From NCBI GenBank assembly GCA_013204395.1, contig JABMNZ010000025.1:9007-73006 (forward strand): a stretch of 64,000 nucleotides of DNA. Direction: 5' to 3'. Within the stretch, counting starts at the first letter, position 1. Each line of letters starts with the position of its first letter. The DNA comes from Parcubacteria group bacterium (lineage in GTDB: Bacteria; Patescibacteriota; Patescibacteriia; UBA9934; GWF2-40-263). The translations under genes and the position numbers were made by a program. Positions 196 through 58,221 of this stretch are shown here, one piece after another. The notes beneath the pieces were generated by a model. That model saw only the letters and a list, made by a program, of their open reading frames with translations. It did no database searches and had not been told where the DNA came from.

Positions 196-618
196 TTATT
201 CACCTTCTTCGTCAAGACTCTTTGGGTTAGGGGAGTATAGCTTTCCGCTAATGCGCCACTGGTCTACATATTGACCAAGGCCAACTTTGTCTCGCTTGTT
301 CTTTACGGTGGTGGTTCTTTGTGACCATTTCAAGAGAGACTCAAAGTTGATCTTGTATCGACCCTGAACCACGACGTATGTCACTTCATCTGCCTGAATG
401 GCTCTACGTATGGTTCGTTGGCTTACACCGAACATTTTTGCGGCCTCAGATACGGAAAGGCGGATTACAGACTTCATATAACTATGTTGATAACTATGTT
501 TGTCAATGCCAGTGTAGTCAAAAAATACCAACCTGTCAACCCAACCCTTGATTTTTTCCTTTATTTCCGGTAGTTTCCTCCTATTGTCGTAATACTTTTC
601 TAAATAATGATGCTTCAT
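196..618 (-). CDS. helix-turn-helix DNA-binding protein (excisionase/MerR-superfamily-type HTH)
   Basis: Motif LSVSEAAKMFGVSQRTIRRAIQADEV...YKINFESLLKW is typical of Xis/AlpA-like HTH proteins. The ATG at 616-618 lies only 2 bp from the divergent sigma-factor start. An internal ATG at 475-477 (MKSVIRLSVSEAAK...) is preceded by a tandem 12-bp direct repeat and is a plausible true start. Confidence 0.6.
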   Translation of the reverse strand: MKHHYLEKYYDNRRKLPEIKEKIKGWVDRLVFFDYTGIDKHSYQHSYMKSVIRLSVSEAAKMFGVSQRTIRRAIQADEVTYVVVQGRYKINFESLLKWSQRTTTVKNKRDKVGLGQYVDQWRISGKLYSPNPKSLDEEGE

Positions 619-620
619 CT

Positions 621-1175
621 GTGAGCAACGAAAAAGAAAAATTTCTTTTGTTCCGTATCCGGGCTTTTAATGATGAGAATGCCTTTAATAAGGTAGTTGA
701 CCTCTATAAGGATAAGGTCACAAAGTTTCTCTCATTTAAACTCCCAACCAGTCATGATGCGGAAGATGCAGTTGCAGAGACGTGGATTCGTTTCTGGAGA
801 TATGCTCGAGGAACAAAAATAGAATCCATCTCAGGCATCATTTTCACCATTGCAAGAGGGGTCGTGTATGACTTCTATAAGCTGAAAGAGAAACGTAACG
901 AACAAGCTCTTCCAGCAAGTGATGAAGCGCCTGAGCTCAGTGACCCACTGCATGAGCAAATCATCAATCAGGTGGACGTAAGTATCCTTAAAGAGTTGAT
1001 CGTACAGTTAGACGAAGAGGATGCTCACATCATACTTATGCGTCATGTCCAGCAGATGAGGATTAAGGACATGGCAAAAGAGCTTGGACTATCTGAGAAT
1101 GCAGCTTCAGTGAAACTTCATAGAGCAATTAACAAATTCAGAACAAGTATCCTGGAAAAGTTTGGAGAATTATGA
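621..1175 (+). CDS. ECF-type RNA polymerase sigma-70 family factor
   Basis: GTG start. Region-2-like segment DAEDAVAETWIRFWRY and region-4 HTH MRIKDMAKELGLSENAASVKLHRAINKFR are present. 184 aa. Confidence 0.75.
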   Translation: MSNEKEKFLLFRIRAFNDENAFNKVVDLYKDKVTKFLSFKLPTSHDAEDAVAETWIRFWRYARGTKIESISGIIFTIARGVVYDFYKLKEKRNEQALPASDEAPELSDPLHEQIINQVDVSILKELIVQLDEEDAHIILMRHVQQMRIKDMAKELGLSENAASVKLHRAINKFRTSILEKFGEL

Positions 1176-2032
1176 ACGACCACGATATCCAAAATCTATT
1201 CGACAACATCTCTGAAAGTTCAGAGTTGTTTGTGTCAGTGGATGATGCACGGGTACGTGATTTAGTTTTTGAGAGAACAGGATTAGATGTATCAAAGGAA
1301 TCAGTGTCATACGGCATGCGCGACTATCTTGAGTATCACATGTGGAATTTTTCACATGCAATGCTCAGGCCAATGGCCGCAGCAGCAGCCGTATTTTTGT
1401 TTGCTATCACCGGTTGGATCACAATGGCTAACGCTTCACAGAACACACTGCCTGGCGACAACCTTTATCCAGTTAAGATTTCAGTAGAGAAGGCACAAAT
1501 GATTCTCGCATTCAGCTCTGATCAGCGGGCAGGCCTGCAGATGGAGTTCACCAGTCGAAGATTGGATGAAATGGTGGAAGTATCCGCACGCTTGCATGAA
1601 TCAGAGCCAGAAGCAGTTCGCTTGGCAGTAGATCGTTTCAAGAGCGAAGTTGCAATCATTCAAGAGGAACTAACAACAGAAGGTGCAAGCACGGAGCTTG
1701 CAAAAGCAGTCGGTCGCAGAGTAGAAGGATATTCCTCAGCTGTAACAGCTTCATCCGCGGAACTTTCTCAAGAGGTGATCGATGAGGTGGAAGAAGTTAT
1801 AGAGGAGACAAAGGAGCAGGCAGTACAAGTCATCATCACTTCGCATGAGGCTGATCAGAATGAAGATGATGCAAGAGAGCTGGCCATAACATTTGAAAAA
1901 GAACTAGCACTTGCACTGGAAGCTGGTGCTGACGAAGAAACACTTGCAACGGCACAGGCTCTGGCAGATGAAGGAGCCTACCGACGAGCCTTCCAAGTTC
2001 TAAAAGAGTTCAACCTATTAATCCAAGAATAA
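1172..2032 (+). CDS. putative anti-sigma factor (single-pass membrane protein)
   Basis: ATGA overlap with the sigma-gene stop suggests translational coupling. One TM helix (MAAAAAVFLFAITGWITMA) separates a ~65-aa cytoplasmic N-terminus from an acidic coiled-coil C-terminus. Function is inferred from context. Confidence 0.5.
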   Translation: MNDHDIQNLFDNISESSELFVSVDDARVRDLVFERTGLDVSKESVSYGMRDYLEYHMWNFSHAMLRPMAAAAAVFLFAITGWITMANASQNTLPGDNLYPVKISVEKAQMILAFSSDQRAGLQMEFTSRRLDEMVEVSARLHESEPEAVRLAVDRFKSEVAIIQEELTTEGASTELAKAVGRRVEGYSSAVTASSAELSQEVIDEVEEVIEETKEQAVQVIITSHEADQNEDDARELAITFEKELALALEAGADEETLATAQALADEGAYRRAFQVLKEFNLLIQE

Positions 2033-2266
2033 ACTGAGCCTTGAATCGGGCCAGGTGCCTCTCATTTAATGAGGGACCTCTTGCTCGCTCATCCATTTGT
2101 GATCACCTGGATGAGCATTATTCACTGATTCGCGAAGTAGCTATAAAAGGTCGAGACCCATGAGGTCGCTGCTCGTAAATTAATCAAAAGCCCTGAACCA
2201 GGGCTAAAAAGGTTCGCCTGCCCCACAAATAATACTGAGGGCGGGTAAAGTACCCAGATACAAAAT

Positions 2267-5200
2267 ATGACTAATTCTCTTCAACTGAAGAAAGCAATCA
2301 CAATGTTTATTGCTGCTGCAACAATTCTTGCTACAGCAGGTTTGACAGCATTTGTGCCTATGCAGGCTTCTGCCGCTTCTTATGGCGACCTGATCATGGG
2401 AGAGACTCTCTCAACTGTTTATTACTACGGTTCAGACGGTCAGCGATACTCATTCCCTAACGAGAAGACCTATTTCTCTTGGTACATGAGTTTTGACGAT
2501 GTTGTACAAGTTACCGATGAGGAGCTTGCTGACATCACACTGGCAGGAAACATTGTTTACCGCCCAGGTTCACGATGGATCAAAATTCAAAGCGACGAAA
2601 AGGTATACGCTGTTTCACCAAGTGGCTCAATCCATTGGATTGAGGACGAGGCTACAGCTGTTGGCCTTGCTGGAGACGCTTGGAACACAAACATCGATGA
2701 TGTTCCAGACGTATTCTTCGTCGACTTCACTGTTGGTGACTCTCTTACAGACGCAGCAGCCGGATATGAGGGCATGCTCTGGACAGACGGTACTAACAAC
2801 TACCTCGTACTCGACGGCATGGCTAGCATGGTCGACGACGGAGGTGCAAACGGTTACCAGGCAGGCTTCTGGCTTACTGGTACTGGATTTGACCCAGCTG
2901 GTCTAACAGCAGGTACAGCTGTAACTGCTGAGCTCGCTTCTCTTACAGACGCAGCACAAATGGTTACCACTGACACCGTTGTAGAAGCTGCAGATGTTTC
3001 AGTAAGCATCTCAGGTTCTCCATCAGCTTCAACCTTGATCGCTGGTCAGGGAATTGCAGATCTTCTGCACGTAACCCTTACAAACAACTCAGGTTCTTCA
3101 GTGAACTTGAACACATTGACCCTTACCCGCAACGGTGTGTCTTCTGACACAACATTGGCAAACATTTATCTATTTGATGGATACATTCGTTTGACTGACG
3201 CTGCAACCATCTCTGATGGAAAGGTAACTTTCAATGATAGCTCAGGTCTTTGGACCCTGGCTGCAGGTGCTTCTGCAACATTGGCTGTTCGTTCAGACAT
3301 TGCTGCAAGCACAAATGGTCAGACCGTTGGTCTTTCTGTTGTAGCTAACACTGACCTAACATTCTCAAGCGCTGGTGCTGCATCAGGTTCTTTCCCAATG
3401 ACTGGATCTGTTCACACAATCGCTACTTCCCCACCCACATTTGGAACTGCTGACTTCACAGGAAGCACAACCCCATCTGCTGCTTCAATTGATCCACAAG
3501 ATGACTACCGCGTATTTGAGCGCACCTTGTCTGTTGGTTCAAACGAGCTTGATCTATACGCAGCTCGCTTCCGAAACATTGGTTCCATTGACGCTGATGA
3601 TATCAGTGGATGGCAGCTTTATGTTGGAGGTGTGGTTCGTGGATCTACCGTTGCAGCTGAGGATGCAGATGGTTACATCTCATTCGACCTTTCAGCTGAT
3701 CCATTAGCACTTGCTACTGGTAATCACCAGGTTAAAGTACTTGCCGACGTTATTGGTGGGTCTGGACGAACCGTTACTGTTGGTCTACGTAATAGCGCCG
3801 ACTTCGTCGCTATGGACCAGGATTACGGACAGCCAGTGCTCTCAACTGTTGGGGCTTCTGCCTTCGCAGCAATGGACGCAGGTGCTCAGACCATTAATAG
3901 TGGCTCACTAACCTTCACCAAGTCTACTAACTCACCTTCTGGTGATGTTACTGAGACTGCTTCAGGTGTAACTCTTGGTAGCTGGTCTGCAAGAGCTTTT
4001 GGTGAGAACATGAAGGTTGAAAGCCTCCGCTTCGCTTTCACAGAAAGTGACGGACATGACGTAACCCTTCGAAATGGTGCTGTGTTCCTTAATGGTACAC
4101 AGGTTGGTTCCACAGCTGGCCTTGAGGCCAATGCTGGTGCTGGAACAGATTACACTTCATATACATTCGGATCTTCTTTCATTGTTGTGCCTGGTACTCC
4201 AGCTACTCTTGAAATAAGAGCTGATATCTATGACACAGATGGAACTGACAGTATCGAAGATGCAGATACAATCATTGCTGAGATTGTTGACATGAATACT
4301 GTTCTAAATGTTCAACAAGTTACATCTGGTGGTTACATCGACGCTCCAGACGGAGCCGCTGTAACGGCAAATACTCTTACAGTAACAGCAGCATCTCTCA
4401 GCGTTGCTAAGAATGGTGCGTATGCTGATCAAACAACTACAGAGCCAAGAAGTAACTATAAGATTGGTTCATGGTCTGTAACAGCTGGAACATCTGAAGG
4501 AGTTAACTTGACTGATATCAACGTTGATTTCGACGGAGCCTCTGATACATCAGAGCCAGCAGGTGGTGACATGTATAATCTTTACGTGATGTACGGTCCA
4601 TCAGCTAACATGACAACATCTAGCACAAAGGGAACAATCGCTGAGACTGCCAACTCATGGTCAATTAACTATGCATTGGAAGCCGGTGAAACCATTTATG
4701 TAGATGTTTATTTGGACATTGACGCAGCTATCACCACTGGTGAAATTATTCAAGCTGTTGTTGATGTGAATGGAACAAGCATGCTCTCTGGTTCATCTCC
4801 TACAACTAATGAAATCACTGGTCAGGCGATCACCACAGCTGCAGGTACATTCACTGAGTTCAATGATGACCACCCAGTTGACGCCATTGTGGCTGGCAAC
4901 CAGGAGGTTACAGCTGCAAAGTACCGATTCAGTGCAGCTAACGAGACATACACCATCACTGAAATGAAGACGTCTGTTGCAAGTGCTACAGCCGCTGGAT
5001 TAGTAAGTGCTGTTAGTTTGTATGACGGAAGCACATTGGTAGGTACAACCATCCTCGACGAGGACACCAACACTTCTGGAACGTTTACTGGTATGAGTAT
5101 CGAGGTTGCAGACAATGCATCTAAGACTCTTACATTGAAGTACACGTTGACTGAGGTTGGAGTAGGTGGAGGAACATCACAGACTGATGTTCAGAACACT

Positions 5201-5998
5201 CTTGAGTCTGTAAAATTCCGTGACAGTAATGGAACGGAGACAACAGAAGCTGATACTAACGCTGTTGACTCTAGTGGTACCGCTTCATGGACTAATGACA
5301 CAATTCTTGGAAACAACCTCTTCGTGTTCAGGTCCATCCCAACTGTTACCCACACCGACCTCACAAACTCAACACTTGTGAACGGTCAGGCAACAGATCT
5401 CTACAAGTTCACTGTCACTGCTGACGCTAACGGCGCTGTTGCTGTTAAGCAGTTCAAGCTAACAGCTTCTTGGAGCGATGGTGGTACTGCAGACACACTA
5501 GAAGTTGAGTCCTTGAAGCTTTACAAGAATGGATCTGACATCACTACTTCTGTAGTAATTCAGGACCAGGATGGAGCTTCTCTAGAGAGCACAAGTGGTT
5601 TGCTAGAGGCAGATTCTGACCTTGTTGTCACATGGGCATCTGAGGACACCGTTTCTGCTGGTGAGACAGTTACTTATACTGTTCGTGGAACTCCACAAGG
5701 CTTCCGCCTTACTGGAGACGACACCTCTGGTGACTCTATTAGCCTCTACTTGGCTCAGGACACCTCTTCAAACAGCACAAACGTCTACCTAAACGTTGGT
5801 GATACAACTGTCAGCGTTATCGAACTCTTCACATCTGCAGCTGCAGGAAATGCAACTACAAATGAGCCTGAGTTCATGTGGTCAGACAACAGTGCTTCAG
5901 CTCACTCTTCAACTGCTGGTTCAGCCTCAACAGGTGACTGGCACAACGGATACTTGGTTAAGAATCTTGACCTTGGATCTGAAACTTGGACTAAATAG
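2267..5998 (+). CDS. giant secreted Thr/Ser/Gly/Ala-rich surface protein with repeated beta/Ig-like domains (adhesin or S-layer-like)
   Basis: 1243-aa ORF with a signal peptide (IAAATILATAGLTAFVPMQASA) and beta-rich low-complexity composition. A ~105-aa N-terminal module (VYYYGSDGQRYSFPNEK...DAWNTNIDDVPD) is shared with the C-terminus of the next gene. Confidence 0.75.
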   Translation: MTNSLQLKKAITMFIAAATILATAGLTAFVPMQASAASYGDLIMGETLSTVYYYGSDGQRYSFPNEKTYFSWYMSFDDVVQVTDEELADITLAGNIVYRPGSRWIKIQSDEKVYAVSPSGSIHWIEDEATAVGLAGDAWNTNIDDVPDVFFVDFTVGDSLTDAAAGYEGMLWTDGTNNYLVLDGMASMVDDGGANGYQAGFWLTGTGFDPAGLTAGTAVTAELASLTDAAQMVTTDTVVEAADVSVSISGSPSASTLIAGQGIADLLHVTLTNNSGSSVNLNTLTLTRNGVSSDTTLANIYLFDGYIRLTDAATISDGKVTFNDSSGLWTLAAGASATLAVRSDIAASTNGQTVGLSVVANTDLTFSSAGAASGSFPMTGSVHTIATSPPTFGTADFTGSTTPSAASIDPQDDYRVFERTLSVGSNELDLYAARFRNIGSIDADDISGWQLYVGGVVRGSTVAAEDADGYISFDLSADPLALATGNHQVKVLADVIGGSGRTVTVGLRNSADFVAMDQDYGQPVLSTVGASAFAAMDAGAQTINSGSLTFTKSTNSPSGDVTETASGVTLGSWSARAFGENMKVESLRFAFTESDGHDVTLRNGAVFLNGTQVGSTAGLEANAGAGTDYTSYTFGSSFIVVPGTPATLEIRADIYDTDGTDSIEDADTIIAEIVDMNTVLNVQQVTSGGYIDAPDGAAVTANTLTVTAASLSVAKNGAYADQTTTEPRSNYKIGSWSVTAGTSEGVNLTDINVDFDGASDTSEPAGGDMYNLYVMYGPSANMTTSSTKGTIAETANSWSINYALEAGETIYVDVYLDIDAAITTGEIIQAVVDVNGTSMLSGSSPTTNEITGQAITTAAGTFTEFNDDHPVDAIVAGNQEVTAAKYRFSAANETYTITEMKTSVASATAAGLVSAVSLYDGSTLVGTTILDEDTNTSGTFTGMSIEVADNASKTLTLKYTLTEVGVGGGTSQTDVQNTLESVKFRDSNGTETTEADTNAVDSSGTASWTNDTILGNNLFVFRSIPTVTHTDLTNSTLVNGQATDLYKFTVTADANGAVAVKQFKLTASWSDGGTADTLEVESLKLYKNGSDITTSVVIQDQDGASLESTSGLLEADSDLVVTWASEDTVSAGETVTYTVRGTPQGFRLTGDDTSGDSISLYLAQDTSSNSTNVYLNVGDTTVSVIELFTSAAAGNATTNEPEFMWSDNSASAHSSTAGSASTGDWHNGYLVKNLDLGSETWTK

Positions 5999-6115
5999 TT
6001 CAACGCTCTAACAAGAGCATCTCTCCACCGATCCATACTTTTCACGAGCATCTGACTGAAAGCTTCGGCTAGACGTCTTGGCTCACCGAGAATGGGATCC
6101 TGGGGAAACAGTAAA

Positions 6116-6144
6116 GACCGTGCCTTCGGGCACGGTCTTCTGTT
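6116..6144 (+). terminator. intrinsic terminator-like hairpin downstream of the giant surface-protein gene
   Basis: GACCGTGCC-TTCG-GGCACGGTC perfect 9-bp stem followed by TTCTGTT. It lies inside the 5' extension of track ORF 6092, which argues that the true start of the next gene is ATG 6158. Confidence 0.45.
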
Positions 6145-6157
6145 ATACTTATCCCAT

Positions 6158-7639
6158 ATGAAACTTCATCACATTATTTTTGGTTCAATGTTCATGTTCG
6201 CCTTAGCTGTTCTTCCTGCACACGCGGAAGGTTCTTGGGTGCAAAAAGAATACGGAACAATCCAAGGGCTCCAAGGAATCGCTCAAATAGGGGACACTTA
6301 TTTTGCTGCTGGTAATACTGGAAACATTATTCGCTCAACGGACGATGGGGAGACATGGTCAGCTTTTGACCAGTCAGCAAGTGTCTATTGGCAAGACATG
6401 GGAGTATTTGGAAGTTATATCTGGGCCATTGGTGAAGGTGGTGCAATGCGCGAGTCTCAGGACTCGGGTAGCACATGGGCTGGTGTGACAACGGGAGTAA
6501 GTGAGGTGCTGTATGACATGGACACATCCACTCTATATGGATACCTCGTTGGATCAGGAGGAAGGATTATGGCATACCATACCGACGCCAGGCTTTGGCT
6601 TGCTGTAACTTCAGACACGACAAGTGTTTTATATCGCGTTCAAGACCGTGGGGACGCTACAGCTTGGGTCGTGGGTGGACAAGGGATTTTGCTTTATACC
6701 CTTGACGCCGGGCAGACATGGACAAACAAAGGAAACGTTGCAACAGATGATCTCTATGGGGTGTGGTTCACGTCTGCTACTGAGGGATATGTAGTTGGTC
6801 GCAATGGAACATTTCGTAAAACAATTGACGCTGGAGCGTCATGGACAACTATCGCTGTAAGTGGACTCTCAAGCCAGTCACTTTATGACATTCGTGGATC
6901 GGGAGATGATTTGGTGATCGCTGGGGATAAGATTTTAATTAGATCCGAAGATGCGGGAGTCACGTGGTCTGTTACAGATTACACAACTGAGAATTACACA
7001 TTCCGCAACGCTCTTTTTTCTGATGAGGGTCCTTGGGTGGTCGGAACAAATTACGACATGGCCTCTGTGATGCTCCGTTATGAGCAATCCGGCGGAGCCG
7101 GATCCGGCTCCGCCGGAGAAGAAGAAGTGGTCGAGGAGGAAGAGGAAACAGTTCTACTCGTTCCCGTTGAGGCTGAGCCGGGTACTTTGATTAAAAAAGT
7201 TTGTCTCGAAGGAGCAACGGCTACTGATCCTTGTCGTGCTGTTTACTATTACGCAACAGACGGAATGCGCCATGCATTTCCAAATGAAAAAGTTTTCTTT
7301 ACCTGGTTTGATGATTTTGATTCTGTAGTAGACGTAAGCGCAGACTTTCTCTCTGATATCCAACTTGGTTCAAACGTGACATATCATCCAGGGACGCGAA
7401 TGGTGAAGTTTCTATCAGTACCAACCGTTTACACAGTATCTATTGGTAGTGAGCTCAGATCGATTGCCAGCGAGGAGATCGCGGTAGGTATGTATGGCGA
7501 TGATTGGAATCAGCAGATCGATGACATCTCAGATGCCTTCTATGGCAACTATTCTTTCGGGGAGCCAATTGAGGCTATTGAGGACTACATACCAGAGCTG
7601 GCATCTGAAGCAGTATCAAGTTTGGATGACAATTTCTAA
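6158..7639 (+). CDS. secreted BNR/Asp-box repeat beta-propeller protein (Ycf48/sialidase-like fold) with C-terminal shared module
   Basis: Five SxDxGxTW motifs (STDDGETW, SQDSGSTW, TLDAGQTW, TIDAGASW, SEDAGVTW). Signal peptide MKLHHIIFGSMFMFALAVLPAHA from ATG 6158. An acidic linker (GEEEVVEEEEE) precedes a ~105-aa domain homologous to the N-terminus of 2267..5998. Confidence 0.7.
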   Translation: MKLHHIIFGSMFMFALAVLPAHAEGSWVQKEYGTIQGLQGIAQIGDTYFAAGNTGNIIRSTDDGETWSAFDQSASVYWQDMGVFGSYIWAIGEGGAMRESQDSGSTWAGVTTGVSEVLYDMDTSTLYGYLVGSGGRIMAYHTDARLWLAVTSDTTSVLYRVQDRGDATAWVVGGQGILLYTLDAGQTWTNKGNVATDDLYGVWFTSATEGYVVGRNGTFRKTIDAGASWTTIAVSGLSSQSLYDIRGSGDDLVIAGDKILIRSEDAGVTWSVTDYTTENYTFRNALFSDEGPWVVGTNYDMASVMLRYEQSGGAGSGSAGEEEVVEEEEETVLLVPVEAEPGTLIKKVCLEGATATDPCRAVYYYATDGMRHAFPNEKVFFTWFDDFDSVVDVSADFLSDIQLGSNVTYHPGTRMVKFLSVPTVYTVSIGSELRSIASEEIAVGMYGDDWNQQIDDISDAFYGNYSFGEPIEAIEDYIPELASEAVSSLDDNF

Positions 7640-7652
7640 GAAGACCGATACA

Positions 7653-9722
7653 ATGCCGCTACTGATTATGCGGCATTTATCTTTATTTACGGAAGCTAAG
7701 CTTCCGACAACAAAGGGTTTTTTTGCGGGGCTAGTGATAGCTTCGCTCGTTTTAACTACTTTTCCTGCGCAGGCTCAGTCAGGTGATCGTTTTGACGATG
7801 AGTTGTGGTACCTCGATCAAATCTCTTTAGATCAGGCTGACATAAAGACTGGGCTCTCACCGACTGTCGTTGCTGTGCTTGATGCTGGGTTTGATTTTGA
7901 TCACGAAGATCTTGATGGTCAGTACTGGGTTAATACAGACGAGACGGCCGGTGATCAGACTGATAATGATGGTAATGGGTATGAGGATGATGTGATGGGA
8001 TGGGATTTTGTTGATAACGATCCAGATCCGTCCCCAGACACAACACCACCTATAAGGGATTCGGTTGTGTCTCACGGAACCGTTATTGCTGGAATAATTG
8101 TTGCTAAGCAGGGGAATGGTTTTGGTATTCGTGGCATTGCGCCTGAGGCTAAGATCATGCCACTACGTGTATTGAATCGCGACGGAGGTGGCTCGACAAT
8201 TGATGTCAGGCGTGCTGTCCGCTACGCAGTTGAAAACGGTGCGGACGTGATTAATCTCAGCATAAACTTTACTACCTCAGATCAGAGGCTTCGTGAAACA
8301 CTTGAGTGGGCACACGACCAAGGGGTGATTATTGTTGGGGCAATTGGCAACGGCAATACTGACACAGATCTCACACCAGTCTATCCAGCCTGCTATGACG
8401 GCGAGATTGGAAAGAATATTGTTATTGGTGTTGGCGCAAGTGATCGTTTTGATAAAAAAGCTGAGTTTTCAAATTTCGGCAGCAAGTGTGTAGACCTTGT
8501 CGCCCCCGGCGTGGATATTTTTGCAACCGTGTATCACGATCCGTCACAACTCTTACTAAGTACTGCTTACTCGTCGCCGTGGGAAGGAACATCTTTAGCA
8601 GCTCCTATCGTGTCCGGAGCTGCAGCACTTTTACGCGGCATGTATCCGTCCATTACCCCTGACCAGGTTCGCAATGTTCTTAAACTCTCTGTTGATCCAA
8701 TAAAAGAAACATCTCTTGAGGCGCGAATACGTCTTGGTGCTGGTCGGTTGAATGTTGCAAAGGCACTTGAGGTAGCAAAGATTGTTGTTGCTGGCCCACG
8801 TACTTCTGTGGCAAAGCAGGATATTTCCACCACAAGCTTTGCGATTGCTCAGGCCCATGGGTCAAGTCCTCAGGTTCGTCGGTATGATGGCAGGGGGAAT
8901 GTGATCGCAGATTTTTATGCATACAACAAAGCATTCACAGGAGGGGTGCGTGTAGCTATGGGGGATGTTGATGGTGATGGTCAACTTGAAATAGTGACGG
9001 GCGCTGGACCAGGTGGGGGGCCACAGGTTCGAGTGTTTGATTTAGATGGTCGACCAGAAAGACAATTTTTTGCCTTCGAGGAAGGAGGACGTGGCGGAAT
9101 CTATGTGGCTACAGGCGACACAAATGGAGATGGTATTGATGAGATAATTGTAACCGCGGACCGTGACAGCACTGGACAGGTTAGGATCTTTAATCAGCAC
9201 GGTCACTTAAAGGGTTCGTTTTTCCCGCTTGGAAGAACAGATGCAGCGCTGGCGGTGAGTGTTGCTAATCTAGACGATGATCCTGAAGAGGAATTGCTTA
9301 TCTCTACGATGGCCGAGTCTGATGGAACGGTTTGGGTTTATGATGGTACGGGGGTTTATGTCCGTTCGTTTGTTGCTCTTAATGGTGAAGTGGACAGCTT
9401 AACTACTACGACAGCGGATTTGGATGGTGATGGTGTTTCGGAGATACTCGTTGCATCTGGCCCGGGTCACACCCCAAGGGTTTCCGTGTATAATCAACAA
9501 GGAGTGTTGTTGGATACTTTACTTGCGTTCGCATCGAATTTTATGGGAGGAGTATCTGTAACCGTTGGGGACATTGATAACAATGGCCGTAAAGAAGTTT
9601 ACACAGCTCCACTCACAGCTGGTGGGCCACAGGTTCGAATTTTTAATCAGACGTTAGATCTCATTGGAGGTTTTTTCACTTTTGACCAAGGGAATCGTTA
9701 TGGAACATTTGTTTCGATGTAG
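7653..9722 (+). CDS. subtilisin-like S8 serine peptidase with C-terminal FG-GAP repeat beta-propeller
   Basis: Catalytic triad contexts VAVLDAGFDFDHEDL (Asp), HGTVIAGII (His) and GTSLAAPIVSGAAALL (Ser). Four or more GDVDGDG..EIV / GGPQVRVFD FG-GAP-type repeats. Start is ATG 7653 or 7668 (signal peptide MRHLSLFTEAKLPTTKGFFAGLVIASLVLTTFPAQA). The track ORF begins at 7494 and overlaps the upstream gene. Confidence 0.8.
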   Translation: MPLLIMRHLSLFTEAKLPTTKGFFAGLVIASLVLTTFPAQAQSGDRFDDELWYLDQISLDQADIKTGLSPTVVAVLDAGFDFDHEDLDGQYWVNTDETAGDQTDNDGNGYEDDVMGWDFVDNDPDPSPDTTPPIRDSVVSHGTVIAGIIVAKQGNGFGIRGIAPEAKIMPLRVLNRDGGGSTIDVRRAVRYAVENGADVINLSINFTTSDQRLRETLEWAHDQGVIIVGAIGNGNTDTDLTPVYPACYDGEIGKNIVIGVGASDRFDKKAEFSNFGSKCVDLVAPGVDIFATVYHDPSQLLLSTAYSSPWEGTSLAAPIVSGAAALLRGMYPSITPDQVRNVLKLSVDPIKETSLEARIRLGAGRLNVAKALEVAKIVVAGPRTSVAKQDISTTSFAIAQAHGSSPQVRRYDGRGNVIADFYAYNKAFTGGVRVAMGDVDGDGQLEIVTGAGPGGGPQVRVFDLDGRPERQFFAFEEGGRGGIYVATGDTNGDGIDEIIVTADRDSTGQVRIFNQHGHLKGSFFPLGRTDAALAVSVANLDDDPEEELLISTMAESDGTVWVYDGTGVYVRSFVALNGEVDSLTTTTADLDGDGVSEILVASGPGHTPRVSVYNQQGVLLDTLLAFASNFMGGVSVTVGDIDNNGRKEVYTAPLTAGGPQVRIFNQTLDLIGGFFTFDQGNRYGTFVSM
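7690..7706. repeat. perfect 17-bp palindrome CGGAAGCTAAGCTTCCG (copy 1 of 3), embedded in-frame in the signal-peptide n-region of the S8 protease
   Basis: An exact 17-mer with a central AAGCTT. The identical core recurs at 19200-19216 and 57287-57303. Three exact copies of a 17-mer in 64 kb is far above chance. Confidence 0.8.
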
Positions 9723-11802
9723 TCCGTTCTTTTACAAGGCAAAACAGGGGGCCATTTTTTGTTTGCTCTTTATTATTGCTTTGCCGGTTTACGCGCTGAC
9801 ACCGAACGATGATTATTATTCCGAGCAGTGGTACATGGAGACCATGGGAGCGCAGATTGCATGGGACGAAGAGACTGGTGATGGTTCTGTTGTTGTTGCT
9901 GTTTTAGATACTGGAATTGATTTGGACCACCCCGATCTTGAGGATAATATTTGGGTGAACTTAGGTGAGATCGCGGGCGATGGTATTGATAATGACAATA
10001 ACGGTTATATAGATGACGTGAACGGTTACGACTTTGTCGATGAAGACGGAACTCCGGTTCCAGATCGCTTTGGGGGGTTTGATGTAGACGCTGTTTCTCA
10101 TGGGACTGTTATAGCCGGCATCGTTGGTGCAGTTGGGAATAACGATGAGGGGATGGCGGGTATCAACTGGAATGTAGAACTCATGTCTGTAAGAATTTTG
10201 GATAGCAATGGTGTGGGTGATTCAAATCTCGCAACTAATGGTGTTGATTATGCCGTAGATAATGGGGCAGATGTTATTAACTTAAGTTTCACTGGGTTTG
10301 ACCACGATGAGCGATTACGTCTTGCCCTACAACGGGCTTTTGAAGCTGGGGTAGTAGTTGTGGCGGCTGTTGGGAACTCTGATAACGGAGGGGTAAATAT
10401 TGATAACAGACCAATCTTTCCTGCGTGTTATGGAGAACGAGCGGATGAAGATTGGATTTTAGGTGTGGCGGCAACGGACGCAAATGATGTGAAAGCAGAT
10501 TTCTCAAACTACGGAGCAACCTGTACGGATATATCTGCTCCCGGTGAGGATATTTTTGCCACGATCTATCAAGACGACGATTGGCCAGGACTTGAGGAGG
10601 GATTTTATCAATCTGGTTGGTCAGGGACATCTATGGCGTCCCCAATGGTGGCAGGCGCTGCGGCTTTGTTAAAGTCTCACTATCACTCTCTGACACCAAG
10701 CGATATCAAAAGTGCTTTGAGATTATCTGTGGATCCTGTGAAGGCAACCGGTGATGCTGTTGGGAAAATGGGATCCGGGAGATTAAACATTTCTAAAGCA
10801 CTTATCCTTGCCGCTTCTTATGCAGATGAGGGCGATGGGGATGATGATGAAGTAACCACAATGACCGAAACAACGAGTTCAAATTCGAGCTACAGAATCG
10901 CAGTTGCGCCAGAAAGTGGTGGTCCACCAACTGTGAGAGTGTTTACAAATTCTGGAGACGAAATAGTCGCGAGCTTCAATGCCTATGACGAATCTTTTAC
11001 TGGTGGAGTTCGACTGGCTATGGGAGATGTTGATGGCGATGGGGAGGAGGAGATTGTGACCGTGCCAGGTTCAGGTGGTCCCCATGTTCGCATATTTGAT
11101 CTAGACGGAAATCTTGAAAGTGACTTTTTTGCATTTTCGACATCCATGAGATCTGGGTTGTATGTGGCAACGGGGGATATTGATGGAGATGGACTTGAAG
11201 AGATTGTTGTGAGTACTGACGAGGGAGGTGGCGCACTTGTCAAAATTTTTGATAACAACGGTGATCAAATCGGCTCTACTATTGAGCCGTTTGAAGATGT
11301 GCCAGCGCCGCGCAGTGTGCGTGTGGCCATGGGAGATGTAGATGGTGATGGCGAGGACGAGGTGATCACAACATTGGGTGATGGTCATGAGCCATTGGTG
11401 CGTGTGCACAAAGCTGACGGAACATTTCAAAGCGAGTTTCTTGCCTATGCACAGACCTATGACAAGGGGGTCTTTGTGGCTTCAGGTGATCTAGACGGCG
11501 ATGGTGATGATGAGATTGTGACAGGTACAGATAATGGTGGTGGTCCACAGGTGCAGATTTATGATGGCGAGGGAGGGTGGCTTGGAACGTTCTTTGCCTA
11601 TGATGATCAGTTCCGTGGAGGGGTTCGTTTGTCTGTAGGGAATCTTTCTAAGTGGCCAGGTGCATCAATTATTACTGCCGCAGGACCAGGGGGAGGCCCA
11701 CATATCCGAGTTTATAATGGATACGCCTCTTTAATAGGAACGTTCTTCTCAGATGACGAAGGTGATAGAGGGGGGGTTAACTCTGGAGCCTGGAGTCTCT
11801 AA
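9700..11802 (+). CDS. second subtilisin-like S8 peptidase with FG-GAP repeats (tandem paralog)
   Basis: VAVLDTGIDLDHPDL, HGTVIAGIV, GTSMASPMVAGAAALL; seven or more FG-GAP-like repeats (AMGDVDGDGEEEIV, ATGDIDGDGLEEIV...). ATG 9700 gives the signal-anchor MEHLFRCSPFFYKAKQGAIFCLLFIIALPVYA. The track start 9664 is a TTG. Confidence 0.8.
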   Translation: MEHLFRCSPFFYKAKQGAIFCLLFIIALPVYALTPNDDYYSEQWYMETMGAQIAWDEETGDGSVVVAVLDTGIDLDHPDLEDNIWVNLGEIAGDGIDNDNNGYIDDVNGYDFVDEDGTPVPDRFGGFDVDAVSHGTVIAGIVGAVGNNDEGMAGINWNVELMSVRILDSNGVGDSNLATNGVDYAVDNGADVINLSFTGFDHDERLRLALQRAFEAGVVVVAAVGNSDNGGVNIDNRPIFPACYGERADEDWILGVAATDANDVKADFSNYGATCTDISAPGEDIFATIYQDDDWPGLEEGFYQSGWSGTSMASPMVAGAAALLKSHYHSLTPSDIKSALRLSVDPVKATGDAVGKMGSGRLNISKALILAASYADEGDGDDDEVTTMTETTSSNSSYRIAVAPESGGPPTVRVFTNSGDEIVASFNAYDESFTGGVRLAMGDVDGDGEEEIVTVPGSGGPHVRIFDLDGNLESDFFAFSTSMRSGLYVATGDIDGDGLEEIVVSTDEGGGALVKIFDNNGDQIGSTIEPFEDVPAPRSVRVAMGDVDGDGEDEVITTLGDGHEPLVRVHKADGTFQSEFLAYAQTYDKGVFVASGDLDGDGDDEIVTGTDNGGGPQVQIYDGEGGWLGTFFAYDDQFRGGVRLSVGNLSKWPGASIITAAGPGGGPHIRVYNGYASLIGTFFSDDEGDRGGVNSGAWSL

Positions 11803-11822: not shown

Positions 11823-12839
11823 ATGTCTCAAGAACTAAAGTTTACAAACAAAAATATCCTTGTGACCGGCGGTGCTGGTTTCATTGGCTCGCATTTATGT
11901 GAGCAATTGCTTCGCGATGATCATAGGGTGGTTTGCATAGATAACCTTTCAACGGGCACAGCAAGTAACATTAACGCACTTTTACAGAATCAGAACTTCA
12001 GATTTATTCGTTTGGATATCAACGAGCCATTTGATTTGGAGAGTCACGCAGAGCTCGCTACTTTCAAGTTACCTTTTCAAGGAATCCAAGAAATTTATCA
12101 TTTAGCTTGTCCAACATCGATTAAAAACTTTGACCAGTTTAAAGTTCAAACACTACTTTCAAATTCCTTGGGGAATTATCACGTGCTTGAAATTGCGAAG
12201 AAGTACCGTGCGCGCGTCATGCTGGCTTCTAGTTCCGTAGTGTACGGACAAAGAGCGGAAGGAAGTGGCATGGTTGAGGAGTCTGAAATGGGTTTGGTAA
12301 ATCAACTTTCTCAGAGAGCTTGTTATGACGAGGGTAAGAGATTCTCGGAAACCATGTTTGAGACTTATCGTCAGGTGCACGGTTTGGATATTCGTATAGC
12401 AAGAATTTTTCGCACGTATGGACCGCGCATGCCACTGTTTGATGGACAGCTCATTCCCGATTTTATCTTGAATGCCCTAGATGGAAATGACCTTGTCATG
12501 TACGGAGGAAAAGATTTCAGCACATCTCTCATGTTCATTTCAGATTTGATTGACGGCCTTGCTCGTATCATGGACGCCCCGGAATACACGGGTCCCGTGA
12601 ACATTGGAAGTGATGTTGATTTGAATCTTGTGGATGTGGCGCAGCAAATTATTGAGATGACCAGCTCATCTTCTAAAATCGTTGATGGAGATAATTTTGC
12701 CTTTCTTTCAGAGTTGGCTTTGCCAAGAATTACAGCGATTAAGGACCTTGGCTGGTTCCCCCTTGTGCGTTTGCCAGACGGTCTACGTCGCACCATTGAA
12801 TACATGAAGGCAAATAAGTTGCTTCTGACAAATGTATGA
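11823..12839 (+). CDS. NAD-dependent sugar-nucleotide dehydratase/decarboxylase, UDP-glucuronate decarboxylase (UXS/ArnA-DH)-like
   Basis: ILVTGGAGFIGSHLCEQLL Rossmann motif, IYHLACPTS and YDEGKRFSETM (YxxxK) signatures resembling the UXS family. Confidence 0.65.
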   Translation: MSQELKFTNKNILVTGGAGFIGSHLCEQLLRDDHRVVCIDNLSTGTASNINALLQNQNFRFIRLDINEPFDLESHAELATFKLPFQGIQEIYHLACPTSIKNFDQFKVQTLLSNSLGNYHVLEIAKKYRARVMLASSSVVYGQRAEGSGMVEESEMGLVNQLSQRACYDEGKRFSETMFETYRQVHGLDIRIARIFRTYGPRMPLFDGQLIPDFILNALDGNDLVMYGGKDFSTSLMFISDLIDGLARIMDAPEYTGPVNIGSDVDLNLVDVAQQIIEMTSSSSKIVDGDNFAFLSELALPRITAIKDLGWFPLVRLPDGLRRTIEYMKANKLLLTNV

Positions 12840-13501
12840 AGGTGATTGCTCTTATCCCAGCGTACAACGAAGAAACAACACTTGCGGTTGTTTTGGAAAA
12901 AACAGCTTCGTTTGTCGATTTGATGTTAGTTGTAGATGATGGCTCTACAGATAGAACAAGTGAGATCGCCTTAAGTCATGGAGCGACGGTTGTCAGCCAT
13001 GTGATTAACCGCGGCCTGGGTGCAGCCATTGGTACTGGATTCGCCGCGGCAATGATGCTTAAAGCGGATGCCGTCATAACCTTGGATGCAGATGGGCAGC
13101 ATGACCCATCGGAGATCCCATTATTTGTTGAAGCCATTAATGATGGAGCTGACGTCGTCATTGGTTCAAGAATGCTTGGAGGTACGGGTATGCCATGGTA
13201 TCGACAGGTAGCGAACCGTCTTGGAAATCTAGTGACCTTTCTTTTGTTTGGCGCTCTTGTCACAGATAGTCAATCTGGTTTCCGTGCGTTCACCGCCTAT
13301 GCCATTAGGCAGATCGAAATCAAGACTAATCGAATGGAGGTTTCTTCAGAATTGATCGCGGAGTCTCGTCGGCACAAGCTTCATCTTGTAGAGGTTCCCA
13401 TAAAAGCGATTTATACGGAGTATTCTCTCTCAAAGGGACAAAGCTTCCTTGTGGGTATCAAGACACTTATCAAACTTGTCTTGCGCCGTATCAGTCAATA
13501 A
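12836..13501 (+). CDS. GT2 polyprenyl-phosphate glycosyltransferase (DPM1/GtrB/ArnC-like catalytic domain)
   Basis: IPAYNEETTL...VVDDGSTDRT...LDADGQHDPSEI (DxD) pattern. ATGA-coupled to the upstream gene. 221 aa. Confidence 0.7.
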   Translation: MKVIALIPAYNEETTLAVVLEKTASFVDLMLVVDDGSTDRTSEIALSHGATVVSHVINRGLGAAIGTGFAAAMMLKADAVITLDADGQHDPSEIPLFVEAINDGADVVIGSRMLGGTGMPWYRQVANRLGNLVTFLLFGALVTDSQSGFRAFTAYAIRQIEIKTNRMEVSSELIAESRRHKLHLVEVPIKAIYTEYSLSKGQSFLVGIKTLIKLVLRRISQ

Positions 13502-13508
13502 TTGATCT

Positions 13509-13841
13509 ATGACCGTAATCCAGATTCTGATTGTCGTATTTGCGCTTTTTGCCATCTCTCGAACAGTCTGGCAATTTAAGAGGGGGTCACTCACCATTGC
13601 TTGGCTTCTTTTTTGGATGATCTTTTGGTTGGTTGCCGCAACGGTTGCTGTGCTGCCGCAGACCACAGACACGGTTGCAAGATTTGTGGGTGTTGGCCGT
13701 GGGGCTGACGCAGTGATCTATTTTTCATTGGTAGCATTGTTTTATCTGGTGTTCCGCACATACGTGAAGATCGAAAAAACAGAAAACGAAATCACAAAGC
13801 TTGTTCGCAAGCTTTCCCTAGATGAACTAGATGACAAATAG
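13509..13841 (+). CDS. small 3-TM membrane protein (DUF2304-like; candidate flippase-type partner of the GT2)
   Basis: 110 aa with three hydrophobic helices. The position immediately after a GtrB-like GT2 mirrors GtrA/ArnEF arrangements. Function is inferred. Confidence 0.45.
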   Translation: MTVIQILIVVFALFAISRTVWQFKRGSLTIAWLLFWMIFWLVAATVAVLPQTTDTVARFVGVGRGADAVIYFSLVALFYLVFRTYVKIEKTENEITKLVRKLSLDELDDK

Positions 13842-14883
13842 TATGCACCCGAAAGTTTCCATTATCTATCTGGCTTACAACACTCATAAATACCTCGACG
13901 AGGTATTTTCGTCTTTACGGCAGTTGAACTACCCAAAGGACAGGCTTGAGATTATTGCGGTTGATAATGATTCAAAAGATGAGAGCGCCGCGTGGCTGCA
14001 CAAGCAAGATGGAATCACGTTTTTTCCAAGTGAGACGAATCTCGGGTTTGCGGGTGGAAACAATCTTGGGATCACCCATGCCCTGCTAAATGGAGCAGAC
14101 TACGTTTTTCTTCTTAATGGGGACGCAAAGTTAGATCCCGATGCCATCATGGGGGCCGTGAAGGTGGCTGAGGCAGATCCTTCGATTGGTTCGGTCCAGT
14201 CCAGGATTATGCTTTGGGAAAAGCCTGAGATTGTAAATGCGACTGGTGGCATGGTGCACTTTTTAGGATTCGGATTTGTAAAAGACAACGGGCTTCCTTG
14301 GAAAGGATCCACACAACCAAGTGAGATTGCTTATGCTTCAGGGGCTGCTGTCCTGTATCGGGCATCCGTTTTGCAAAAAGTTGGTTTACTTGATCCATTC
14401 TTTTTCATGTATCACGAAGATCTGGAACTTGGTTGGAGGATTCGTCTAGCTGGAGGGAAAAATATGTTAGCTCCACAATCTGTCGCCTATCATGATTATG
14501 AGTTCTCTCGATCCATTCAAAAGTTCTACTGGATGGAACGAGCTCGAGTTCTTGTTCATTTTTCACATTTGACATGGAGGTCACTTTTAATTCTCGCCCC
14601 AGCAATGGCGTTATCAGAACTCGGACTACTTGTTTTTGCCATCAAAGGTGGTTGGCTCAAAGAAAAATTTCTTGTCTACGCTTCTTTACTCTCACCTAAA
14701 TCGTGGAGATATATTTCACGCAAGCGAAAAGAGAGCACTGCTATTCGATCGGTGAGCGATAGAGAAATTGCTTCACTTTGGACGGGTCGCATAGAACATC
14801 AAGACACAAGTAGCCCAATTGTGGATCGCGTTATCAATCCTGTTATGTCGATCGCTTGGTCGGTTATGAAAAAATTTATCTAA
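13831..14883 (+). CDS. glycosyltransferase family 2
   Basis: VSIIYLAYNTHKYLDEVFSSL...IIAVDNDSKDES, typical of GT2 rhamnosyl/glucosyltransferases. An alternative ATG lies at 13843. Confidence 0.7.
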   Translation: MTNSMHPKVSIIYLAYNTHKYLDEVFSSLRQLNYPKDRLEIIAVDNDSKDESAAWLHKQDGITFFPSETNLGFAGGNNLGITHALLNGADYVFLLNGDAKLDPDAIMGAVKVAEADPSIGSVQSRIMLWEKPEIVNATGGMVHFLGFGFVKDNGLPWKGSTQPSEIAYASGAAVLYRASVLQKVGLLDPFFFMYHEDLELGWRIRLAGGKNMLAPQSVAYHDYEFSRSIQKFYWMERARVLVHFSHLTWRSLLILAPAMALSELGLLVFAIKGGWLKEKFLVYASLLSPKSWRYISRKRKESTAIRSVSDREIASLWTGRIEHQDTSSPIVDRVINPVMSIAWSVMKKFI

Positions 14884-16044
14884 ATGGACAAGCAAATAAA
14901 AATTGCGCACGTTGTTTCAACTTATCCTCCTTACCGAGGTGGAATGGGGAGGGTTGCTTTTGAATATGTGGAGCGACAAAGAGCAAGAGGTTATAGCGCG
15001 CATGTGTTTACCATTGCTGGTGAAAAAGTTGAGGACGACCCCCGTTATGTCCATAGGGTCCCGTCGATAATGCATATCGGTAATGCTGGCGTACTGCCGT
15101 CACTGTTTAAGCGACTTTCTGGTTTTGATCTTGTTCATCTTCATTATCCATTTTACGGTGGCGCTGAGCCCACTATTGTCCGTAAGGCTCTTCGTCAGAA
15201 CCAAGGTCTGGTTATGACCTACCACATGGATAACTATGCCCCTGGACTTAAGGGGGCAATCTTTTCTGCTCACAGGCGTCTTTTGTTTCCATGGCTCATG
15301 AATCGTGTTGATAGAATCTTGGTGAGCTCTTTAGACTATGCAAAACATTCAGCCCTTGCGGAACTTAATCTAGAAGACCGTATCGAAGAGCATCCGTTTG
15401 GTGTTGAGTTGGATCGATTCAAACCAGGTGAGGAAACACATCTACGGTCAGATTTGAATCTTGATTCTGACATTCCTGTCCTTTTATTTGTTGGGGGTCT
15501 TGATGCGGCCCATCATTTCAAGGGACTCACGGTGCTATTTGAAGCTTTGGAAAAGTTAGTGGCACAGTCTTGGCATTTGGTTGTGGTTGGAGAGGGTCCA
15601 CTTCGGGAGACATACAAAGCAAACGCGGACGCTGCTGACCTTTCACAAAGAGTGACCTTTGCTGGTAATGTTTCAGATGAGGATCTTCCTCGTTACTATC
15701 GCCTAGCTGATATGCACTTGTTTCCTTCGACGGGCAGGGGAGAGGCATTTGGACTTGTGGCTGCAGAAGCGGCGGCTAGCGGAACTCCATCCATTGCTTC
15801 GAATCTTCCTGGTGTTCGCACGGTTGTGAGAGATGGGGACACAGGGCTCCTCGTAACCCCAAACGATGTAGAGGAGCTGTCTAAGGGCATTTTAACGCTT
15901 CTGGAACAGCCTGAGGTGAGGAGAAGGTTTGGATTATCGGCTCGCATTCATGCTGAGCAACATTACGGTTGGGAACCCATTATGGATCGTCTTGAGGAAA
16001 CTTATGAATCCGTCTTAGGACAACAATCAACGCGCGCCTACTAA
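14884..16044 (+). CDS. glycosyltransferase family 4 (GT-B)
   Basis: C-terminal EAFGLVAAEAAASGTPSIASNLPGVRTVVRDGDTGLLV (EX7E-type motif). Confidence 0.75.
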   Translation: MDKQIKIAHVVSTYPPYRGGMGRVAFEYVERQRARGYSAHVFTIAGEKVEDDPRYVHRVPSIMHIGNAGVLPSLFKRLSGFDLVHLHYPFYGGAEPTIVRKALRQNQGLVMTYHMDNYAPGLKGAIFSAHRRLLFPWLMNRVDRILVSSLDYAKHSALAELNLEDRIEEHPFGVELDRFKPGEETHLRSDLNLDSDIPVLLFVGGLDAAHHFKGLTVLFEALEKLVAQSWHLVVVGEGPLRETYKANADAADLSQRVTFAGNVSDEDLPRYYRLADMHLFPSTGRGEAFGLVAAEAAASGTPSIASNLPGVRTVVRDGDTGLLVTPNDVEELSKGILTLLEQPEVRRRFGLSARIHAEQHYGWEPIMDRLEETYESVLGQQSTRAY

Positions 16045-16045
16045 T

Positions 16046-17251: not shown

Positions 17252-17255
17252 GAAA

Positions 17256-17279: not shown

Positions 17280-17281
17280 GA

Positions 17282-17340: not shown

Positions 17341-17342
17341 AT

Positions 17343-58220: not shown

Positions 58221-58221
58221 C

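Follow-up and report, generated by a model that had tools for sequence, protein, structure and literature searches.

In Clostridioides difficile, the slpA/cwp locus brings together the surface-layer (S-layer) protein, wall proteins anchored by CWB2 domains, including the protease Cwp84, and the adjacent PSII glycan genes; we know of no dedicated sigma factor for this locus. Long structured leaders precede slpA in Lactobacillus (the untranslated leader sequence, UTLS) and in Thermus thermophilus, and the cggR-gapA operon of Bacillus subtilis is processed. For the candidate phyla radiation (CPR, Patescibacteria), both the gene for the periodic surface layer and its control are, to our knowledge and in the literature searched, undescribed. 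Such a layer, with no outer membrane, has been observed by cryogenic transmission electron microscopy of groundwater CPR cells (PMC7906910), and a preprint of 2024 reports that S-layer proteins are predicted for this phylum. Here we analyze 64,000 nucleotides (the window; positions 9,007 to 73,006 of contig JABMNZ010000025.1, assembly GCA_013204395.1) from a Parcubacteria group bacterium, which encode an extracytoplasmic function (ECF)-type sigma factor, a single-pass membrane protein with a DUF5667 domain, and a secreted protein of 1243 aa that we call BIG. We propose, with a probability of roughly 55%, that these genes are the Uhrbacteria version of a widespread Patescibacteria envelope module, in which sigma and DUF5667 lie upstream of a wall-anchored BIG that would be the cell's own S-layer-type protein.

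Taken singly, the ingredients of this module are of known kinds (an ECF pair, an S-layer locus whose proteins share an anchor, and a structured leader), but the combination, the anchor domain, and the leader RNA were not found described in the literature searched. As in the C. difficile locus, the surface protein, secreted enzymes, and a protease share one putative wall-anchoring module beside glycan-synthesis genes, and a subtilase of sister Uhrbacteria bears the same anchor as BIG. However, the anchor is EccB/PlyCB-like and not CWB2, the protease belongs to family S8 and not C1, and the surface protein is unrelated. BIG resembles the SLH-type S-layer proteins of Bacillota (Sap/EA1 of B. anthracis and SbsB of Geobacillus) in its signal peptide, putative N-terminal wall module, and beta-sandwich array, as well as in being acidic and Cys-free, and the BIG homologue P0108 even has SLH; unlike them, BIG has no sequence or specific fold similarity, its anchor is a different, unannotated domain, and the lattice is a proposal. 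The regulatory pair recalls sigX-rsiX and sigW-rsiW of B. subtilis in that translational coupling joins a sigma factor of two domains to a membrane protein with a single span, and sister lineages have exactly the promoter type of such pairs (TGTAAC/TGAAAC-N16-CGAC/CGTA) before sigma or its partner. In contrast to those pairs, the partner carries no recognizable anti-sigma domain or ZAS motif, the lineage of the window has no detectable ECF promoter, and the conserved target is a single, very large surface protein gene. Finally, the locus shares with the slpA leaders and cggR-gapA a long stable leader before an envelope gene and an upstream regulator that is expressed far less (the expression data being those of Ca. 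Yanofskyibacterium), although the leader has no sequence relationship to them and no Rfam family, its processing is only a proposal, and its invariant single-stranded AAGGUCGA has no described counterpart.

The features of the locus are collected in Table 1. BIG is 100% identical to a hypothetical protein from the metagenome-assembled genome of a 'Parcubacteria group bacterium', and its closest relatives (84-47% identity) belong almost all to Candidatus Uhrbacteria; the genome behind the window is of the Uhrbacteria type. The six plus-strand open reading frames (ORFs) of the preliminary description are real and lie where it had placed them, but its contiguous same-strand cluster has to be redrawn, since positions 196-618 hold a minus-strand helix-turn-helix (HTH) gene outside the run and the glycan genes extend the cluster downstream. 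The order within the glycan block is NAD-dependent sugar epimerase/dehydratase, glycosyltransferase family 2 (GT2), DUF2304, GT2, GT4, GT4, and ATP-binding cassette (ABC) exporter. The longest ORFs overlap their neighbors, and therefore the likely true starts are 6158 (BNR protein), 7653 (subtilase S8a), and 9700 (subtilase S8b). The HTH gene probably begins at Met48 (position 477), as orthologue alignments start at about residue 45-49. No rRNA, tRNA, or Rfam match was found in the window.

Table 1. Annotated features of the sigma-DUF5667-BIG locus and its surroundings, in window coordinates.
Feature	Position	Strand	Basis
Divergent HTH regulator, excisionase/MerR-like HTH_17	196..618	-	Pfam HTH_17 34 bits; TIGR01764
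Operator-like block TGTCnACAC-nAGTGTAGnCA	501-520 (within control region 498..576)	.	Alignment of 28 orthologous spacers
Promoter of HTH gene, TTGACA-17-TACACT	539 to 511	-	Promoter scan
Sigma-70-like promoter of sigma, TTGATT-N17-TAGTTT	548-553 and 571-576	+	28-spacer alignment; conserved as TTGATT-N17-TAnnnT
ECF-type (group 4) sigma factor, 184 aa, GTG start	621..1175	+	Sigma70_r2 + Sigma70_r4_2, TIGR02937
Single-pass membrane protein, extracytoplasmic helical DUF5667 domain	1172..2032	+	PF18915 41 bits
Structured leader RNA of BIG	2033..2266	+	Covariance model R1, covariation, minimum free energy (MFE)
Weak ECF-like candidate TGAAC-N16-CGCC	2194..2218	+	Overlaps P4 loop; read from sequence and alignment
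BIG, 1243 aa, candidate major wall-anchored S-layer-type protein	2267..5998	+	Homologues, AlphaFold2 (AF2) model
BNR/Ycf48-like beta-propeller with C-terminal anchor domain	6092..7639	+	PSII_BNR, BNR
Subtilase S8a, signal peptide, S8A catalytic domain, C-terminal FG-GAP propeller	7653..9722	+	Pfam, triad motifs
Subtilase S8b, S8a paralogue with FG-GAP propeller	9700..11802	+	Pfam, 41% identity
Glycan-synthesis block	11823..19145	+	Pfam

The conservation of this gene order was analyzed in 79 loci around BIG homologues (numbered L001 onwards), taking one genome per species and annotating them with tblastn and iterative hidden Markov model searches. About 20 loci of the Uhrbacteria type, with BIG identities as low as 47%, keep the complete order HTH (minus strand), sigma, DUF5667, BIG, BNR, S8, S8, epimerase, GT2, and its first four genes are present in 28/28 Uhrbacteria-type loci that have upstream sequence. 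More distantly, at 33-42% BIG identity, the sigma-DUF5667-BIG trio is kept in the same order in 16 loci labelled Nomurabacteria, Staskawiczbacteria, and Paceibacterota, including Ca. Microsyncoccus archaeolyticus, where it was confirmed by Pfam. Across these lineages nearly all the other surroundings differ. Since the BNR and subtilase genes occur only in Uhrbacteria-type loci, the conserved core is sigma-DUF5667-BIG, and the genes for the proteases and the propeller are an addition outside it that is particular to this lineage. The epimerase and first GT2 genes are syntenic in the Uhrbacteria loci, and the divergent HTH gene upstream of sigma is found in all of these and in L029, L030, L032, and L076. 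The preliminary description had made its case depend on the co-localization of the homologues in related genomes, and this was decisively found, with the full order in the Uhrbacteria type and the core in distant Patescibacteria. Of the coherent secreted surface system for attachment and proteolysis that it envisaged, the coherence, secretion, and co-localization are upheld, while the attachment reading and proteolysis as part of the core are not.

The evidence for wall anchoring comes from a domain of 115 aa that BIG (aa 46-160) shares with the BNR protein (aa 379-493; 7226-7570) at 43% identity (E = 5e-35), and which neither Pfam nor NCBIfam covers. A profile of this domain recovered 4,802 clusters at 50% identity, 2,600 of them at E up to 1e-30, and in most of the best 150 of these 4,802 clusters the domain sits at either end of the protein. 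Its partners are secreted: BNR propellers, Big_13, Big_7, PKD, invasin, cupredoxin, SH3_3, GH5, and S8. The structural model (predicted local distance difference test, pLDDT, 93.9) consists of two tandem beta-beta-beta-alpha-beta-alpha repeats, like the periplasmic repeats of EccB from type VII secretion and the PlyCB-type phage-lysin domains, and in the fold search it resembled these EccB/PlyCB wall-binding repeats, EccB being the best match. In distant BIG homologues the core of about 1000 aa is kept, while PG_binding_1 or SLH stands at the same N-terminal position; the SLH-bearing homologue P0108 is from Peribacteria. This replacement is the strongest argument for taking the shared domain as a cell-wall-anchoring module, together with the fold matches and the promiscuous terminal distribution, so that the anchor domain probably binds the cell wall. 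In six sister loci (L003, L004, L011, L014, L016, and L017) the anchor domain takes the place of the FG-GAP part of S8b; this exchange (e.g., L003:18537-20120 and L004:17392-19014) is a clean domain swap between sister species.

BIG itself begins with a signal peptide (aa 1-36) and the anchor domain (2402-2746), followed by a second small N-terminal subdomain up to about aa 237 and by an array of approximately 8-9 Ig-like beta-sandwiches (aa 245-1243). No Pfam domain was found in it, and its AF2 model is all-beta (pLDDT 88). The protein is rich in Thr (13.2%) and Ser (10.5%), which add up to 24%, has a pI of 4.05, and contains no Cys, and its homologues have a length of about 1230-1290 aa and are highly conserved. 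This architecture, the acidic Cys-free composition, the constant length and conservation, and the SLH/PG_binding_1 swaps argue for an S-layer-type protein rather than a variable adhesin. On these sequence features, an S-layer-type protein anchored to the wall of the cell itself is a more likely identity for BIG than an adhesin directed at a host. BIG had been presented at first as a Thr/Ser-rich beta-repeat adhesin or S-layer-like protein; the Thr/Ser-rich composition and the beta fold hold, and of the two roles the S-layer-type one is the more likely.

An adhesin would nevertheless fit the lifestyle of Patescibacteria, which are episymbionts. In this explanation, which we consider unlikely, BIG would attach the cell to its host, the subtilases would attack the host surface, and the sigma/anti-sigma pair would act as a switch upon envelope stress or host contact. 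Kuroda et al. take highly expressed proteins with peptidoglycan (PG)-binding domains as attachment factors. In BIG homologues, however, SLH or PG_binding_1 can stand in for the terminal module, which points to the cell's own wall. Besides, peptidoglycan is lacking in the archaea that serve as hosts in the Kuroda cultures. Ig-like domains in tandem are a typical feature of adhesins, but the constant length and high conservation of BIG are unlike those of fast-evolving, repeat-variable adhesins; similarly, FG-GAP and BNR propellers are common ligand-binding modules, but the genes for the proteases and the propeller do not belong to the conserved core, and there is no sequence indication of contact sensing.

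Three further observations concern the BIG family. The C-terminus (aa ~1200-1243; 5870-5995) carries a motif that is near-invariant in the whole family, W-S-D-x-S-x3-H ... G-D-W-x-N-G-Y-L-V-x-N-L-D-L, and that could be a sorting, assembly, or recognition signal. Some Paceibacterota loci have two BIG paralogues (in tandem in L054:9299-12805 and 13499-17002; also L071). In Ca. Microsyncoccus archaeolyticus (L050:12874-16417), BIG is followed by four pseudopilin-like genes that combine an N-terminal methylation motif with Laminin_G_3.

The identity of the sigma factor as ECF was borne out, because only the sigma-2 and sigma-4 domains are present and their scores exceed the family cut-offs: Sigma70_r2 34.1 bits (cut-off 24), Sigma70_r4_2 39 (cut-off 25.7), and TIGR02937 (sigma70-ECF) 67 (cut-off 42.9). 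No match to sigma region 3 or 1.1 was found in the protein with Pfam and NCBIfam. The DUF5667 gene overlaps the sigma stop codon in ATGA, encodes one hydrophobic segment (aa ~63-88), and adjoins sigma in 44/44 loci where it was found; a profile search for distant DUF5667 proteins gave close relatives only. Thus, of the ATGA-coupled single-pass anti-sigma factor predicted initially, the coupling and the single segment are confirmed, but the anti-sigma label derives from position and topology, without a known anti-sigma domain. On these two features, the DUF5667 protein is probably an anti-sigma or sensor partner. The same order of HTH, ECF sigma, DUF5667, and secreted PG-binding protein appears in Ca. 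Yanofskyibacterium (PMC10936435). The day-14 expression values given there for the last three genes are 7.6, 12.5, and 16.7, respectively, and the PG-binding protein is among the five most expressed genes with a signal peptide (PMC10936435). This source contains the only Paceibacteria transcriptomes and makes no mention of the sigma factor.

The preliminary description had called for an ECF-type promoter upstream of position 2267, and the search was negative in the window and in the 28 orthologous loci; the spacer turned out to be a structured RNA leader. In the whole sigma-BIG region of the window, no ECF-type promoter (AAC at -35 and CGT at -10, about 16 nt apart) was found, and no AAC-N-CGT motif is positionally conserved in the 28 orthologous loci. 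The canonical pattern occurs twice in the window, about as often as expected by chance, and each time within a coding sequence of the opposite strand. The weak candidate in the leader is unconvincing as a promoter, since it occurs only in a subset of orthologues, its spacer is itself conserved, and L012 has an insertion. Two other candidates were rejected: a promoter at the end of the DUF5667 coding sequence (CDS), because conservation is restricted to codon positions 1-2 and matches the peptide YRRAFQxLKE, and TTAATTC-N-GGTCGAG, because its two parts lie anywhere from 16 to 20 nt apart and the stem between them shows covariation. Nor does anything point specifically to the envelope-stress or contact-dependent regulation suggested beforehand: the sigma gene has a sigma-70-like promoter and an operator-like block, a palindrome whose left arm is degenerate in the window itself.

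The situation is different in sister lineages. TGTAAC-N16-CGTA/CGTC is found 30 nt before sigma in L030, L032, L053, and L076, and TGTAAC-N16-CGTC/CGTA in the sigma-DUF5667 spacer of L025, L027, L033, L035, L040, L049, and L064, where sigma itself has TTGACT-N17-TATAAT flanked by TAGGACA repeats. The latter ECF pattern also lies 240-320 nt upstream of BIG in L043, L057, and L066, where the sigma gene is not adjacent. In these promoters the hexamers are kept and the spacers differ, as promoters should, and they are the best support for sigma driving DUF5667-BIG, although they come from relatives and not from the window. From these sequence patterns, the sigma factor may be expected to regulate BIG. 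In the region equivalent to 498-576, the Staskawiczbacteria-type loci L033, L036, L044, L049, and L064 show 3-4 TAGGACA/TGTCCTA repeats and a same-strand DeoR-like HTH gene.

These promoters also bear on a second explanation, rather improbable in our opinion, whereby BIG would simply hitch-hike in the operon: sigma and DUF5667 would form a general envelope-stress pair with targets elsewhere, the housekeeping sigma factor would transcribe BIG, and the leader would be an mRNA stabilizer or insulator. The sigma-70-like promoters upstream of sigma fit this idea, as does the finding of an ECF-type promoter in neither the window nor the Uhrbacteria orthologues. Moreover, S-layer genes without a dedicated sigma factor can have stabilizing structured 5' leaders, as in Lactobacillus slpA and Thermus slpA. 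Yet such hitch-hiking is opposed by the ECF-type promoters directly before DUF5667-BIG, and before BIG where sigma is not adjacent, by the trio order kept in otherwise different surroundings, and by the step up in expression after sigma in Yanofskyibacterium.

The 234-nt spacer upstream of BIG starts at the stop codon of DUF5667. What is conserved along it is a series of hairpins, comprising the long hairpins P1 and P2, P3 (~2126-2182), P4 (2190-2204), and P5 (2217-2246). The 5' bulge of P3 carries the invariant AAAAGGTCGAG (2145-2155), and this one-sided bulge presents the invariant AAAGGUCGAG; the invariant element of the leader is AAGGUCGA. The covariance model R1, built from nine sequences with a hand-annotated seed, matches 2045-2187 in the window with 109 bits and gives exactly one match per Uhrbacteria locus, always on the plus strand upstream of BIG, and none elsewhere. 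In an alignment of 25 sequences, 84.9% of cells pair versus 36-48% in slid controls, and 38/41 pairs show compensatory changes; the observed values were unreached by any shuffle. Independent single-sequence folds of the spacers gave the same hairpin architecture, and the leader of the window has an MFE of -85 kcal/mol (z = -5.6). RNAalifold on a plain MAFFT alignment of the spacers yielded only 4 pairs, because variable-length loops break the alignment. In Rfam, no leader match was found at gathering thresholds, the best weak one at permissive thresholds having 16 bits (E = 9.5).

In L009, L018, and L022, the DUF5667 CDS runs into P1, its final part containing the 5' strand of this hairpin and its stop codon falling in the loop, which argues that the leader is part of a transcript starting within or upstream of DUF5667. 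P1 and P2 were ruled out as terminators of the sigma operon because they lack a U-tract: the terminator scan found no plus-strand intrinsic terminator in 2033-2266, and the tails after P2 are not U-runs. Beyond Uhrbacteria, GGTCG[AG] occurs upstream of BIG in 15 of the 16 distant trio loci (P = 5e-14) and in 13/30 loci without the trio (P = 6e-6), in differing hairpin contexts and downstream of ECF-type promoters where those exist. Our reading is that this element would be a conserved site, single-stranded in the RNA, at which a factor or a nuclease acts.

The remaining explanation, that the spacer acts as DNA, with promoter or operator sites and GGTCGA as a -10-like or repressor-binding element, is very improbable. 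In its favor, GGTCGA keeps an invariant sequence even between very distant lineages and forms a palindrome (GGTCGACC) in the Staskawiczbacteria-type loci, in four of which GTAAA[AG][CT]-N15/16-CGAC has promoter-like geometry. Against it, the flanking stems show extensive covariation, and many of their pairs are G-U, which would become A-C on the opposite strand; the distance of GGTCGA to the upstream conserved block varies from 16 to 20 nt in Uhrbacteria and is interrupted by 100-nt hairpin insertions in L035, L036, and L064; and in L043, L057, and L066 the ECF-type promoter precedes the element by 25-110 nt.

Two minor features of these spacers were also recorded. In the Staskawiczbacteria-type loci a conserved loop, UAGUACGUAAA, is followed by GGUCGACC, an example of a related GGUCGA element. 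Between the DUF5667 stop codon and P1, L003 (9711-9812), L021, L028 (1331-1423), and L034 contain extra palindromic inserts, GTGTCATTGCGAG...CTCGCAATGACAC, that resemble small mobile or repetitive palindromic elements.

Several observations weigh against the proposed module. The scan of species genomes found the BIG family in no more than about 100 of them, and thus it is not universal in the phylum. A BIG profile had 0 matches at E up to 1 among all PDB sequences, and Foldseek with the BIG model returned generic Ig arrays only (integrin legs, alpha-2-macroglobulin, and DSCAM; template modelling (TM) score at most 0.16), so BIG was not assigned to a known S-layer family; Ig-like arrays are, in addition, equally typical of adhesins. 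The 693-aa PG-binding protein of Yanofskyibacterium (PMC10936435) is a counterpart of BIG by gene order and only a possible homologue. No anti-sigma Pfam family was detected among 35 DUF5667 orthologues at E up to 0.1, and the DUF5667 protein has 0 Cys and therefore no zinc-binding (ZAS, HxxxCxxC) motif. In the window, the search of the sigma-BIG region revealed no ECF-type promoter, and sigma stands behind a sigma-70-like promoter with the operator-like block, beside the divergent HTH gene. Finally, the covariation counts of the leader come from an alignment that was fitted to the R1 model.

If the module works as we propose, BIG would be secreted by Sec and held on the cell's own wall through its N-terminal EccB/PlyCB-like domain. 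It would be very abundant, would display its Ig-like array, and would most likely form the periodic surface layer of CPR cells, whose observed spacing is 3.8/10 nm. The sigma/DUF5667 pair would tune transcription of the DUF5667-BIG unit; in Uhrbacteria, sigma, DUF5667, and BIG are probably co-transcribed, and the leader might raise the output of BIG over that of the regulators, by mRNA processing or stabilization or by the binding of a factor at the invariant single-stranded AAGGUCGA. The BNR propeller and the subtilases could be lineage-specific wall-associated accessories for layer maturation or extracellular digestion, and the downstream genes may supply the wall or the layer with a glycan.

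A more ambitious version, which we offer only tentatively, is that one dedicated circuit, formed by the ECF sigma, the DUF5667 sensor, and a leader with a universal single-stranded AAGGUCGA, controls the surface-layer protein across much of Patescibacteria. In this circuit the condition of the layer or wall would be sensed by DUF5667, which would then release sigma for transcription of DUF5667-BIG, and binding or cleavage of the leader at AAGGUCGA would set the output of BIG. If true, this would identify the CPR S-layer gene, a new wall-anchor family, and a new cis-regulatory RNA, and the gene would be the first of its kind to have an ECF sigma/anti-sigma pair dedicated to it. CPR/Patescibacteria account for a large part of the diversity of bacteria. 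The locus offers a phylum-wide candidate surface-layer gene. The surface of an obligate episymbiont is the site of host interaction, and its main component and regulator matter for cultivation and parasitism. The anchor family, with about 4,800 clusters, would mark the wall-associated proteome of Patescibacteria, and the covarying leader absent from Rfam and the defined ECF-type promoter of sister lineages are further handles.

Concerning the accessory genes, the BNR protein has five canonical Asp-boxes, with the propeller at aa ~45-340 followed by an acidic linker and the C-terminal anchor, and matches PSII_BNR with 57.5 bits (cut-off 27) over partial coverage only. The five-blade BNR/Asp-box propeller announced earlier is right in its five Asp-boxes and its BNR/Ycf48-type match, but five blades are not established; the repeat spacing of aa 45-340, judged by eye, suggests 6-7 blades, as in Ycf48.

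The two paralogous S8 proteases with C-terminal FG-GAP propellers were recovered as described: S8a and S8b share 41% identity over their full length and pass the Pfam cut-offs for Peptidase_S8 (167.6 and 166.7 bits) and FG-GAP (63.1 and 41.5 bits; cut-off 22.1), with four Ca-binding motifs (D-x-D/N-x-D/N-G) in each C-terminal region. Both have intact D/H/S triads, in the motifs VLDAG/VLDTG, HGT, and GTSLAAP/GTSMASP (D77/H141/S314 in S8a, numbered from 7653), and their closest solved structures are of the thermitase/AK.1 type. The mycosin model TIGR03921, linked to the type VII secretion system (T7SS), is their best NCBIfam match, but mycosin identity was rejected, as the scores (173.8 and 162.1 bits) are below the cut-off of 278.75 and there is no C-terminal membrane anchor. 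Given that no other T7SS gene is nearby, this likeness and that of the anchor fold to EccB are probably a coincidence.

A conserved protein of about 680 aa with an FG-GAP region is encoded on the minus strand about 2-4 kb upstream of sigma in L001-L024 (e.g., L001:4957-7131); no S8 match was found in it, and the window starts just inside this neighborhood and excludes the gene. Elsewhere in the window, the stretch 58000-62900 has 60% GC versus about 46% for the window and contains four minus-strand ORFs (258, 385, 376, and 237 aa) without a Pfam match, and it may be foreign or unusual DNA. At 33960-35282 (minus strand) there is a protein with a possible propeller and with PEGA, a domain associated with S-layer-like proteins; its gene adjoins that of an S41/PDZ CtpB-like protease (35341-36645, plus strand), and both constitute a second envelope pair in the window.

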